A stretch of DNA of 64,000 nt from Escherichia coli (GTDB taxonomy: Bacteria; Pseudomonadota; Gammaproteobacteria; Enterobacterales; Enterobacteriaceae). The stretch lies in the NCBI RefSeq assembly GCF_013122565.1, contig NZ_CP053258.1; one strand, given 5' to 3'. This document shows positions 9,820 to 10,803 of the stretch, one piece after another; the stretch's first letter is position 1; every line of letters starts with the position of its first letter. A model generated the notes under the pieces. It saw only the letters and a program-made list of their open reading frames with translations, had not been told where the DNA came from and searched no databases. The position numbers and the translations under genes are program-made.

Positions 9820-10803
9820 GTGAATTTCCCGGTATCCATCCAGCAAAAACGGGTGTATAAAACTGTACATTCATACAGCAAAATGAGTTCTACTATGGCA
9901 CTGGAAAAAGGAATTGCAGAGTTAGTCGAAGAGTTTATCGCTGCGGGTCGCCCCTCATCGCGTCAACAAAGTATTGCGCAGCGCAGGGAGGGCTATATCG
10001 CCAGCGCTGTCCTTGCGGGTGAGACAGAAACGCGGGTAGATATTCAGACTATCGAACTTGAAGGGATGACCTTACGAATAGTGTCGCCGCTTAATGCCCC
10101 GACATTACTCCCGACGATAATTTATTACTACGGTGGCTGTTTTGTTAGCGGCGGGTTCGCAACTCACGACAACCAGCTGCGCCAGTTAGCCTATTACGGG
10201 CAATGTCGTGTTATTGCCGTCCAGTATCGGCTGGCACCGGAACATACTTTCCCCGCCGCCCATGATGATGCGCAACGAGGTGCAGAATTAGTCTGGCAAC
10301 ACGCCGAACGACTCGGCGTTGATAAACAACGGATAACTCTTGCCGGTGACAGTGCGGGCGGACATCTGGCGCTGGTAACTGCTTTGCGATTAAAGCGTGC
10401 TGGCGAGTGGCAACCGGCACAACTCATCTTAATTTATCCTATGCTTGATGCGACTGCGCATTTCGAAAGCTACATACGCAATGGTCACGATTACATCATC
10501 ACACGCGACACTTTACTGAGCGGCTTTGAGATGTATCTGCCAGGCATTGAACGCAGGCATCCTGAAGCCAGCCCTCTTTGGCGCGATGATTTCAATGGCT
10601 TGCCACCTGTACATATCATTACCGCTGAATACGACCCACTTTGCGATGAAGGTGAAGCGTTGTATCACCGCATGACAGGGCAAGGAGTGCAATGCACCTG
10701 CCAACGCTACCTTGGCGTTATCCACGGATTTTTTCAGTTAGGTGGTATCAGTGAGGCTGCGCGATCGGCGCTGCGGGATGTGGCCTGGAGAGCGGGAAGG
10801 TAA
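9820..10803 (+). CDS. Alpha/beta-hydrolase esterase/lipase (Aes / hormone-sensitive-lipase family)
   Basis: Oxyanion-hole-like YGGCFVSGG, nucleophile elbow GDSAGG, C-terminal IHGF; true start may be an internal Met (about 9883). Confidence 0.7.
   Translation: MNFPVSIQQKRVYKTVHSYSKMSSTMALEKGIAELVEEFIAAGRPSSRQQSIAQRREGYIASAVLAGETETRVDIQTIELEGMTLRIVSPLNAPTLLPTIIYYYGGCFVSGGFATHDNQLRQLAYYGQCRVIAVQYRLAPEHTFPAAHDDAQRGAELVWQHAERLGVDKQRITLAGDSAGGHLALVTALRLKRAGEWQPAQLILIYPMLDATAHFESYIRNGHDYIITRDTLLSGFEMYLPGIERRHPEASPLWRDDFNGLPPVHIITAEYDPLCDEGEALYHRMTGQGVQCTCQRYLGVIHGFFQLGGISEAARSALRDVAWRAGR

Follow-up and report, generated by a model that had tools for sequence, protein, structure and literature searches.

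The best overall explanation of our results is that the 64,000-nt stretch of Escherichia coli DNA analyzed here (the window) very probably carries a resident family IV esterase gene that is preceded by a LexA box, is orthologous to Salmonella nlhH, and is separate from the HigB-2/HigA-2 toxin–antitoxin (TA) operon beside it. Judged from its sequence, the segment 9895–10803 is predicted to be an intact family IV (HSL/Abhydrolase_3) serine esterase gene. As nlhH (STM14_4846/STM4032) is already documented as a gene of the SOS regulon in Salmonella enterica (Merida-Floriano et al. 2021, PMC8072944), the finding is largely known already. The esterase and its neighbors are laid out as follows.

9895..10803, + strand: esterase coding sequence, 302 aa, family IV/HSL alpha/beta hydrolase, E. 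coli orthologue of Salmonella nlhH/STM4032
9820..9894, + strand: non-coding piece of the open reading frame as first described, holding the putative esterase promoter and leader
9355..9666, − strand: HigB-2-type toxin, 103 aa, matching V. cholerae HigB-2 structures at E = 1e-19 over residues 2–99
9064..9354, − strand: HigA-2/NadS-type antitoxin, 96 aa, with a C-terminal HTH (NCBIfam NadS, 60.7 bits versus a cutoff of 60; Pfam HTH_3)

The open reading frame list of the window gives a + strand frame spanning 9820–10803, with the IYYYGGCFVSGG and GDSAGG motifs inside it, and the preliminary description accordingly began the gene at 9820. This is 75 nt too early, the true start being ATG 9895. The RefSeq annotation of the same E. 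coli gene (909 nt/302 aa, ‘alpha/beta hydrolase’) matches ATG 9895, and a cross-genus alignment of 26 upstream regions shows 9820–9894 to be non-coding, with non-triplet indels and with a −10 hexamer and a LexA box inside. At the equivalent of position 9895, all orthologues share the N-terminus M-A/P-L-E-K-G.

Homology searches placed the protein in the HSL family. It matched Pfam PF07859 (Abhydrolase_3) at E = 5.8e-69 (232.5 bits versus a cutoff of 25) over profile positions 1–209 of 210, and 108 solved HSL-family structures matched it at E ≤ 1e-10 in a search of the PDB, led by PestE (2yh2; 6.7e-51, about 45% identity). The original label of an HSL/Aes-family esterase with a GDSAGG motif was thus borne out as to family. 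Orthology to Aes was not, the protein falling below the cutoff of the NCBIfam Aes equivalog NF007547 (139.4 versus 389 bits), and it scored below the cutoff of the LipP1 model as well (239 versus 350 bits).

The esterase gene and higB-2 diverge from a 228-nt intergenic region, which holds the following elements.

9861..9880, no strand assigned: LexA (SOS) box AACTGTACATTCATACAGCA, with its core CTG-N10-CAG at 9863–9878, 14 nt upstream of the esterase ATG
9855..9860, + strand: −10-like hexamer TATAAA of a putative esterase promoter, directly abutting the LexA box
9782..9808, no strand assigned: conserved 27-nt block TTTACATTTGCGAGGCGCTTTCCAGAT, with paralogous copies at 8111–8137 and 8550–8576, upstream of yiiF and yiiE
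9694..9710, no strand assigned: perfect palindrome GTACGTCA-T-TGACGTAC upstream of higB-2, a candidate HigA-2 operator

Scored with a matrix of E. coli LexA sites, the LexA box reached 20.9 bits, the highest value in the 64-kb window, where the runner-up scored 12.4; the pattern CTGT-N8-ACAG occurred twice in the window versus 0.65 matches expected. A CTG-N10-CAG box lay at −32 to −35 in 28/28 other loci scored, which span about 11 named genera, with scores of 17.2–23.3 bits. The locus shows two sequence features of an SOS-regulon gene, namely a CTGT-N8-ACAG box at or overlapping the promoter and conservation of that box across orthologous promoters (for the LexA-box consensus and its typical position, see PMC3323433). 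The −10 hexamer, kept as TATAA(A/C/G) in nearly all of the 26 aligned upstream regions (K. indica has CAAAAT and Salmonella Abony L031 has CATAAA), probably acts as the esterase promoter; a σ70 scan called no esterase promoter, and the putative −35 element is weak.

In Salmonella, nlhH is upregulated 15.1-fold with nalidixic acid and carries an SOS box 13 bp from its ATG (heterology index 7.63), and the divergent higB-2, 184 bp from the same box, is upregulated 8.05-fold (PMC8072944). We reproduced this geometry of 13 nt and 184 nt from the sequence of the Salmonella Newport locus. A Salmonella ‘putative acetyl esterase’, STMUK_4015, was found ~3-fold up together with SOS genes when dam was mutated (PMC4213855). 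Conservation of the box, taken with the behavior of the Salmonella orthologue, suggests that the E. coli esterase is likewise under LexA/damage control: LexA would keep the gene off in undamaged cells, and RecA-stimulated cleavage of LexA would induce it.

The 27-nt block was found in three copies in the window (its 18-nt core had 3 matches versus 0.02 expected) and most genera keep it upstream of the esterase, including some that have neither the TA nor yiiF. Read on the minus strand it is TGGAAAGCGCCTCGCA, with the GG-N10-GC spacing seen in a σ54 promoter, and it is also kept in genera with no minus-strand gene downstream of it. We considered a known RNA as its identity and rejected this, as an Rfam scan of 7300–13300 gave only REP-derived matches, to naRNA4 and ES036, at 7654–7736.

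The arrangement of the esterase as divergent from a TA pair, as first described, was confirmed, with both TA genes on the − strand. The toxin is the orthologue of Salmonella higB-2/sehC (66–71% identity), the antitoxin matched HigA-2 in the PDB at 1.8e-8, and the pair has the makeup of a type II HigB-2/HigA-2 system, in which a HigB-2-homologous toxin is followed downstream by the gene for an HTH antitoxin. SehAB was rejected as its orthologue, SehB being a 142-aa classical HigA; the true orthologue is SehCD/higB-2. A defense-system assignment for the esterase–TA pair was also set aside, PADLOC having returned generic HTH matches for the antitoxin only. The palindrome is conserved in loci with the TA or a remnant of it (L002, L006, L007, L012, L013, and L026 in the upstream alignment) and is visible in the Salmonella Newport intergenic sequence too; binding of HigA-2 there is plausible from this pattern. 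HigB-2/HigA-2 is a separate operon, transcribed divergently across the same 228-nt region. What may tie the esterase to the TA, a link that the preliminary description missed, is their common and apparently LexA-controlled divergent intergenic region, with co-induction documented in Salmonella (PMC8072944).

This shared region invites a stronger reading, which we regard as unlikely, in which the esterase and HigBA-2 form a functional DNA-damage module co-induced by the common LexA box, the esterase being tied to toxin action or to a damaged subpopulation; for example, it might act on a genotoxin or a signaling ester while HigB-2 arrests growth. The divergent region of both contains one LexA box, nalidixic acid raises the expression of both in Salmonella, and the arrangement is kept with an intergenic length of ~217–230 nt in E. 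coli, Salmonella, Pseudocitrobacter, and K. spallanzanii. However, 23 loci without an intact TA still have the LexA box at the esterase, the box lies 194 nt from the higB-2 ATG in the window and far from the only strong σ70 match of the TA operon, and strain SE15 has an intact esterase next to a frameshifted toxin. Moreover, TA induction under stress can result from antitoxin turnover. A more specific form of the idea is quite unlikely: that about half of E. coli, not including K-12, carry a LexA-controlled esterase with tyrosine at position 79 (Tyr79) together with HigBA-2 on one SOS box, and that this esterase serves a damaged subpopulation, perhaps by acting on a genotoxic or signaling ester, in connection with HigB-2 arrest. 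What a DNA-damage-induced esterase acts on, and to what end, is a question for specialists in any species.

We return to the preferred reading, a resident esterase separate from the TA operon, and to its active site, whose residues are encoded at the following positions.

10351..10353, + strand: catalytic Ser153, in GDSAGG, aligned with PestE Ser157
10633..10635, + strand: catalytic Asp247, in YDPLCDEG, aligned with PestE Asp254
10723..10725, + strand: catalytic His277, in GVIHGF, aligned with PestE His284
10129..10140, + strand: oxyanion-box codons Y79-G80-G81-C82 (TAC GGT GGC TGT), standing where the family has its HGGG motif

Loss of the catalytic triad, raised at the outset as the case against an esterase, is contradicted by the alignment with PestE, in which Ser, Asp, and His are all present. 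The protein has the family's GxSxG elbow (GDSAG subtype), its Asp and His stand in DPLxDEG and HGF contexts, and it has the oxyanion Gly-Gly: the YGGC box aligns with HGGG of PestE and Est8, and Gly80–Gly81 match the GG of HGGG in four structures of the alignment. The product would be a cytoplasmic serine carboxylesterase of family IV, in which the Ser153–Asp247–His277 triad and the Gly80–Gly81 oxyanion hole would cleave a carboxylic ester, probably one of small to medium size.

The HGGG box typically opens with histidine, a hallmark without a catalytic role; the E. coli esterase has Tyr79 instead. Among 120 close homologues, YGGC occurs in the 6 sequences of the E. coli cluster and HGGC in the other 114, from other genera; more widely, histidine occupies this position in 119/125 family representatives (~95%). 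Tyr79 is fixed in all six E. coli alleles examined (that of the window and five others), whose pairwise dN/dS was 0.08–0.31 with dS up to 0.07. Because homology, triad, and Gly-Gly dipeptide are unambiguous, we kept the protein as a family member and treat Tyr79 as a lineage-specific variant within it. Tyrosine in place of a near-invariant histidine could lower or change the activity of the E. coli enzyme, and its fixation where ~95% of the family has histidine, yet under purifying selection, poses a structure–function question.

Read differently, the E. coli esterase would be a decaying, catalytically impaired relic, in which the change from histidine to tyrosine was a first step that was followed by loss from half of strains. 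The rarity of tyrosine here, set against histidine in 119/125 representatives and in each of the 114 close orthologues outside the E. coli cluster, fits such a course, as do the absence of the gene from 51% of E. coli genomes and the mere remnant left in E. whittamii. We nevertheless find it very unlikely: of 2,639 matching genomes, 2,636 have a reading frame that spans 80% or more of the query, dN/dS is 0.08–0.31 among alleles with dS up to 0.07, and the triad, Gly-Gly dipeptide, and LexA box are all kept. In cholinesterases, the homologous box is naturally IYGGGF, so that tyrosine is structurally tolerated there.

The comparison with other genera points to a family member that has long been in place. 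In 29/29 non-E. coli loci checked, from about 11 named genera and at 69–84% identity, the esterase lies between fdhE and fabY; the genera include Citrobacter, Pseudocitrobacter, Superficieibacter, Lelliottia, Klebsiella, Kosakonia, Franconibacter, Enterobacter, and Salmonella. An intact copy of the TA was present in 6 of these 29 loci and missing in 23: it is found beside the esterase in E. coli, Salmonella, Pseudocitrobacter, and one Klebsiella species, and not in most other genera. Esterase identity tracks that of the flanking core genes (Spearman 0.52 for fabY and 0.68 for fdhE). By this synteny, the gene is an ancestral resident of the Enterobacteriaceae fdhE–fabY interval and not the cargo of a mobile TA islet. 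The preliminary description, which had the unit moving together as an islet, is overturned on this point by the 29 resident loci, 23 of them without an intact TA. It had also named, as counting against it, a widespread core gene at another locus; this is borne out in part, the gene being widespread in Enterobacteriaceae, at this same fdhE–fabY site.

The islet was originally suggested by two direct repeats.

8985..9083, no strand assigned: left repeat D1L, comprising the last ~20 nt of higA-2 and a terminator hairpin AACTCCTG...CAGGAGTT, then UUUU on the − strand
10802..10900, no strand assigned: right repeat D1R, a relic of a higA-2 3′ end and hairpin that has since diverged, beginning within the esterase stop codon

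The copies are 99 nt long, 87% identical, and 1,817 nt apart from start to start, and they bracket the TA and the esterase. That they enclose the unit therefore holds in the window; as element ends they fail, since they are relics of a higA-2 3′ end. D1R is the left edge of a separate insertion that carries a 604-aa orphan gene: it is absent from E. coli with the TA and esterase but without the orphan gene, it is the only repeat copy in genomes with the orphan gene alone, and among esterase-positive E. coli it is restricted to a minority three-gene configuration (241/2,636 genomes). From their sequences, we take both repeats to descend from the 3′ end and terminator of higA-2 and to have diverged since.

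Their history was judged from the five haplotypes examined. The orphan-gene region would have been attached at an AACT microhomology past the esterase stop, leaving the repeats in tandem, and recombination between them would give, or reverse, an esterase-less haplotype with the orphan gene only. Both orphan-gene-only loci have a right-copy-like repeat with the flank of the left copy, a pattern that fits either deletion from the three-gene haplotype or assembly from two haplotypes. In strain LHM10-1, a D1L-like patch within the repeat indicates gene conversion between the copies.

Among 5,426 complete E. coli genomes, the esterase was found in 2,636, the TA in 2,635, the orphan gene in 1,061, and all three in 241. 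The esterase and TA were contiguous in 2,600 genomes; in E. coli the same deletions take out both neighbors, so that they are present or absent together. The claim that the two persist together thus holds within E. coli and not elsewhere (6/29 loci). Nearly every E. coli genome with the unit has it in a single copy at one locus. Apparent plasmid or phage carriage was rejected: the matches were chromosomal records, whole or in contigs, entered under plasmid or phage labels, such as a 194-kb linear ‘plasmid’ with fdhD, fdoGHI, and fabY, or unannotated 3–4 kb fragments, and among the matches inspected there was no genuine plasmid or phage carrying the unit. The open reading frames between the repeats include no integrase or transposase, and the TA–esterase unit has no inverted repeats or target duplication.

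The orphan gene comes and goes independently of the esterase in E. coli. It had been taken for a lipid phosphatase (SopB/IpgD-type) solely from a CX5R-type motif, CKSAKDRT, and gave no match in Pfam (even at E ≤ 10), NCBIfam, the PDB, or PADLOC; eight relatives were found, of which those with a named source are from E. coli/Shigella and one cluster is 73% identical. A lipid-related function common to this gene and the esterase, as first proposed, finds no backing in their co-occurrence, which is rarer than expected under independence (241 genomes observed versus about 515).

A repeat-bounded, mobile or addictive islet of TA and esterase, with a lipid role common to the esterase and the phosphatase-like gene, is accordingly most improbable and largely refuted already, for although the 99-nt repeats bracket exactly the TA and esterase in the window, some genomes have one repeat copy and no unit, and the TA and esterase are almost perfectly linked in E. 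coli, the esterase is syntenic in about 11 named genera with 23/29 loci lacking an intact TA, about 91% of esterase-positive E. coli lack the right repeat, the repeats consist of a gene's 3′ end with its terminator in a unit without integrase, transposase, inverted repeats, or target duplication, the ‘plasmid’ and ‘phage’ matches are mislabeled chromosomal records or 3–4 kb fragments, and the orphan gene, which has no detectable family and is restricted to E. coli/Shigella, comes and goes irrespective of the esterase.

What looked like the cargo of a TA-stabilized islet is thus, on the preferred reading, an old syntenic enterobacterial gene, which is mostly a clarification; the fdhE–fabY interval is also a clear case of a hot spot of TA accretion and erosion. 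K-12, the strain in which the classical E. coli SOS regulon was worked out, has lost the esterase–TA locus by deletion, and about 49% of E. coli genomes are predicted to carry an extra LexA-regulated esterase and TA pair.

Among known systems, the solved family IV enzymes PestE (2yh2), Est8 (4ypv), EH1AB1 (6i8d), EST2 (1evq), and AFEST (1jji) are 40–45% identical to the window esterase over the whole catalytic domain and share with it the GDSAG elbow, the Ser-Asp-His triad, the Gly-Gly dipeptide, and the N-terminal cap region; unlike them, the window esterase has YGGC in place of HGGG and a predicted LexA regulation. E. coli Aes (acetyl esterase, 4krx) belongs to the same Pfam family and has the same motifs (PDB match E = 5.8e-29), but it is a paralogue at another locus, and the window protein reaches only 139 bits on the NCBIfam Aes model against its cutoff of 389.

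The closest counterpart is Salmonella nlhH, with about 77% identity, the same fdhE–fabY locus, the same divergent HigB-2/HigA-2 neighbor, and a LexA box 13–14 nt from the esterase ATG and 184–194 nt from the higB-2 ATG. It differs in having histidine at the box position where E. coli has Tyr79, and damage induction is demonstrated in Salmonella, whereas control in E. coli is predicted from the box. The Salmonella Newport locus examined also has a second TA, the classical HigB/HigA pair sehAB, between the esterase and fabY, where the window has the 604-aa orphan gene; LT2 likewise has sehAB there according to the literature, and two other Salmonella loci examined lack it.

For the neighboring TA, V. 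cholerae HigB-2/HigA-2 offers the same toxin-first order and C-terminal HTH antitoxin (1e-19 and 1.8e-8, respectively), but it resides in a superintegron, whereas the pair described here occupies a conserved enterobacterial chromosomal locus. SehAB, with its 142-aa antitoxin, belongs to a different family from the window TA, and it is Salmonella sehCD that flanks STM4032 in the same way as this TA flanks the E. coli esterase.

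We located the esterase in the six-frame ORF list of the window as a 327-codon ORF at 9820-10803 on the + strand, which includes both strings quoted in the preliminary description, IYYYGGCFVSGG and GDSAGG, and whose product shares as much as 99.6% identity with E. coli alleles. The gene is real, although the start at 9820 is wrong: the RefSeq annotation of the same gene in E. coli (909 nt/302 aa) corresponds to an ATG at 9895, all orthologues begin M-A/P-L-E-K-G at the equivalent of this position, and in an alignment of the 235 nt 5′ of the esterase start (window plus 25 other loci) the stretch 9820-9894 contains non-triplet indels and conserved regulatory blocks and thus behaves as non-coding. 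The surrounding sequence is an E. coli-type chromosome.

Features around the esterase in the window
Left of the toxin-antitoxin (TA) pair: yiiE and yiiF (RHH proteins), fdhE
9064-9354, − strand: HigA-2/NadS-type antitoxin (NadS, 60.7 vs 60 in NCBIfam; HTH_3; PDB HigA-2, 1.8e-8)
9355-9666, − strand: HigB-2-type toxin (PDB HigB-2, E=1e-19 across residues 2-99)
9855-9860: TATAAA
9861-9880: LexA box AACTGTACATTCATACAGCA, 14 nt 5′ of the esterase ATG
9895-10803, + strand: esterase, corrected start
10972-12786 (ORF to 12825), − strand: orphan gene of 604 aa; GC of the segment low, at 35-42%
Right of the esterase, in order: the 604/617-aa ORF (no family match), fabY, dtd and yihY

The esterase matched Pfam Abhydrolase_3 (PF07859) at E=5.8e-69 and 232.5 bits (gathering cutoff 25), and its best NCBIfam models were those of the HSL family. 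Since none of these reached its equivalog cutoff (LipP1, 239 bits against 350; Chloramphenicol hydrolase, 164 against 500; Aes, 139 against 389), the protein is a family IV/HSL esterase and not orthologous to Aes. Among solved structures, 108 sequences matched at E<=1e-10, headed by PestE 2yh2 (6.7e-51), Est8 4ypv, EH1AB1 6i8d and LAE6 5jd4. Numbered along the 302-aa protein, Ser153 (GDSAGG), Asp247 (YDPLCDEG) and His277 (GVIHGF) pair with PestE Ser157, Asp254 and His284, and the catalytic triad is therefore intact on proper alignment. The enzyme would hydrolyse a carboxylic ester.

Residues Y79-G80-G81-C82 aligned at the HGGG box of the solved structures; the Gly-Gly dipeptide is kept, and Tyr79 is an unusual substitution. 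HGGC is found in 114 of the 120 closest homologues, including those named Salmonella, Citrobacter, Enterobacter, Leclercia and Lelliottia, with YGGC confined to six E. coli-cluster sequences. For the wider family 150 representatives were compared; the box was recognisable in 125 of them and began with His in 119. Tyr79 is present in all six E. coli alleles examined and requires one change from His, CAC-to-TAC. The E. coli esterase is under purifying selection (pairwise dN/dS 0.08-0.31, dS up to 0.07, six alleles), and the enzyme is probably active despite Tyr79. The residue following the HGGG box, Phe83, is one tied to chain-length preference in the HSL family (PMC10099132).

The TA and the esterase show tight linkage in E. 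coli: of 5,426 complete genomes searched at a query coverage of at least 80%, 2,636 carried the esterase, 2,635 the TA, and 2,600 both contiguously. The orphan gene was present in 1,061 of these genomes, with only a remnant in about 2,000 others, and the whole 5.9-kb arrangement in 241. Esterase and 'phosphatase-like' orphan gene are not associated; as they co-occur in 241 genomes against about 515 expected under independence, the proposal that they share a lipid-related function finds no support. The orphan gene contains CKSAKDRT, a CX5R motif known from INPP4 and SopB/IpgD phosphatases; it had no match in Pfam, NCBIfam, PDB or PADLOC and only eight relatives, the named ones from E. coli or Shigella and one other cluster 73% identical. 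It is intact in the window, and several RefSeq E. coli genomes carry it as two frameshifted pieces, one misnamed 'transposase'.

A repeat search of the window returned a 99-nt direct repeat pair (8985-9083 and 10802-10900) that is 87% identical and 1,817 nt apart. The left copy consists of the final ~20 nt of higA-2 and a hairpin, AACTCCTG...CAGGAGTT, which is followed by UUUU on the TA strand and hence represents the terminator of the TA. The right copy, a diverged version of this higA-2-end segment, starts within the esterase stop codon. Mapping onto the window distinguished four haplotypes in E. coli.

E. coli haplotypes and their repeat copies
TA and esterase only (O111:H8): left copy only; 63 nt from esterase stop to fabY
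Orphan gene only (O55:H7, strain 33E): single copy, with the left flank of the left copy and the body of the right copy
All three (window, LHM10-1, ECE204): both copies
K-12 type (K-12, comparison locus L004, 2438-2554): 8858-12721 deleted; 35-codon orphan-gene remnant

The K-12-type deletion spares neither TA nor esterase, and of the orphan gene only the remnant, annotated as a partial pseudogene, is left. AACT microhomology marks the esterase/right-copy junction, and the right copy of LHM10-1 has a left-copy-like patch, so the copies exchange sequence. Their higA-2-end make-up, the haplotype mapping and this exchange together establish that the two repeats are homologous relics of a gene end; the order of the rearrangements is one that we infer. 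We rejected the repeats as mobile-element termini, given that the copies are a higA-2 end with its terminator and that the TA and esterase unit has neither a recombinase nor inverted repeats nor a target duplication.

Outside E. coli, we searched 26 loci (from a scan of one genome per species) and four added Salmonella loci with the window proteins by tblastn. At every sampled locus the esterase lay between fdhE and fabY, at 69-84% identity, in Citrobacter, Pseudocitrobacter, Superficieibacter, Lelliottia, Klebsiella, Kosakonia, Franconibacter, Enterobacter, Salmonella and several other Enterobacteriaceae, and its identity tracked that of fabY and fdhE (Spearman 0.52 and 0.68, respectively). 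The esterase is thus an ancestral resident, evolving roughly twice as fast as its neighbours, and not cargo. HigBA-2 adjoined the esterase only in Pseudocitrobacter (three loci), K. spallanzanii and two Salmonella loci, with a fragment at one further locus; the TA-esterase intergenic length was mostly within a few nucleotides of the window's, and 217 nt in S. Newport. The reading of the unit as a mobile islet is therefore unsupported, the esterase being syntenic across genera, mostly without HigBA-2, and the repeats not being element ends. That TA and esterase persist together holds as tight linkage within E. coli but not in other genera, where the TA is mostly absent beside the esterase.

In many genera an RHH+PIN (VapBC-like) pair adjoins the esterase instead of HigBA-2, and at the S. 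Newport locus examined a second TA, the classical HigB/HigA (sehAB), lies between esterase and fabY. This layout agrees with that reported for LT2 and with the STM4030.S-STM4033 layout of a paper marked retracted, used here for gene order alone, which we confirmed independently. The fdhE-fabY interval is a hot spot of TA accumulation and erosion, and a general insertion hot spot.

Several further variants were seen at the locus. E. coli p11A (comparison locus L037, 1767-3380) has a DUF6708 protein and a hypothetical gene inserted between two RHH genes, and strain THO-006 (database match H17) a ClbS/DfsB-family protein with an ISEc53 element at the esterase locus. E. coli SE15 (comparison locus L036, 692-1004) has a HigB-2 toxin annotated as frameshifted, with antitoxin and esterase intact. 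In E. whittamii (comparison locus L030, 3173-3400) the esterase promoter, first codons and last ~18 codons are kept around an internal deletion, and there is no TA. Several plasmid- or phage-filed records (PLSDB and a phage collection; database matches H79-H85, H94, H96) are chromosomal sequence with fdhD-fdoGHI-fdhE-fabY: E. coli 'plasmids' of 1.0-4.9 Mb, the 194-kb Salmonella NZ_CP051374.1, which we examined, and, filed as 'phages', contigs of about 160 kb from Salmonella WGS data. Three further Salmonella 'plasmids' of 70-178 kb are probably likewise chromosomal. Such misfiling can mislead mobility inferences.

E. coli yiiF (7781-8023) encodes the RHH antitoxin left over from an RHH+PIN pair. 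The pair is intact at the yiiF position in Salmonella Abony, Citrobacter, Klebsiella, Pseudocitrobacter, Superficieibacter and others; the expected PIN gene site in E. coli (7630-7740) holds REP-type repeats with weak Rfam naRNA4/ES036 matches. yiiE (8242-8460) is a diverged tandem paralogue of yiiF, its upstream 100 nt duplicated along with the gene. Three copies of a 27-nt block (core TTGCGAGGCG(T/C)TTTCCAG; 0.02 expected) lie at 8111-8137, 8550-8576 and 9782-9808, 5′ of yiiF, yiiE and the esterase/higB-2 region. The block is conserved 5′ of the esterase in most genera, shows sigma-54-like GG-N10-GC spacing on its minus strand, and in E. whittamii has its yiiE and esterase copies merged into one, with no TA between. 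About 30-45 nt 5′ of higB-2, GTACGTCATTGACGTAC (9694-9710) forms a perfect 8-1-8 palindrome kept in loci with HigBA-2 or a TA remnant, and is a likely HigA-2 operator candidate. A strong sigma-70 match, TTGTTA-16-TATAAT, stops 2 nt short of the higB-2 ATG, a spacing that fits poorly with a normal leader.

In the upstream alignment, TATAA(A/C/G) followed directly by CTG-N10-CAG is conserved in nearly all genera. The LexA box consensus is CTGT-N8-ACAG, and such boxes typically overlap promoters (PMC3323433). Scored with a matrix that we assembled from known E. coli LexA sites, a caveat on all scores, the site at 9861-9880 reached 20.9 bits, within the training-site range and by a wide margin the top of the 64 kb (runner-up 12.4), and an equivalent LexA-type site lay at -32 to -35 in 28 of 28 other loci scored. 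A second CTGT-N8-ACAG match, CTGTTATTTATCACAG at 29869-29884, fell outside the top eight matrix scores. LexA would repress the E. coli esterase gene by occluding its promoter.

DNA-damage induction of the Salmonella orthologue depends on LexA and RecA (PMC8072944). With nalidixic acid, nlhH (STM14_4846), which has a single SOS box 13 bp from its ATG (heterology index 7.63), rose 15.1-fold, and the divergent higB-2 (STM14_4847), 184 bp from the same box, rose 8.05-fold (Merida-Floriano et al. 2021, PMC8072944). We measured exactly 13 and 184 nt at the S. Newport locus, and identity with nlhH is therefore secure. In a dam mutant array, where SOS is de-repressed, the 'putative acetyl esterase' STMUK_4015 was about 3-fold up alongside SOS genes (PMC4213855); its locus numbering makes identity with nlhH probable. 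Given the shared LexA box and the co-induction in Salmonella, the esterase-TA coupling is regulatory and positional, with one box in the divergent region common to both. This box stays with the esterase in 23 loci without an intact TA, so LexA control is primarily the esterase's. The esterase is predicted to extend the SOS regulon of E. coli in a strain-variable way, and interest also attaches to the role of a damage-induced esterase and to the Tyr79 variant. SOS control is already established in Salmonella, and the E. coli gene belongs with an enterobacterial esterase already known to be LexA-regulated.
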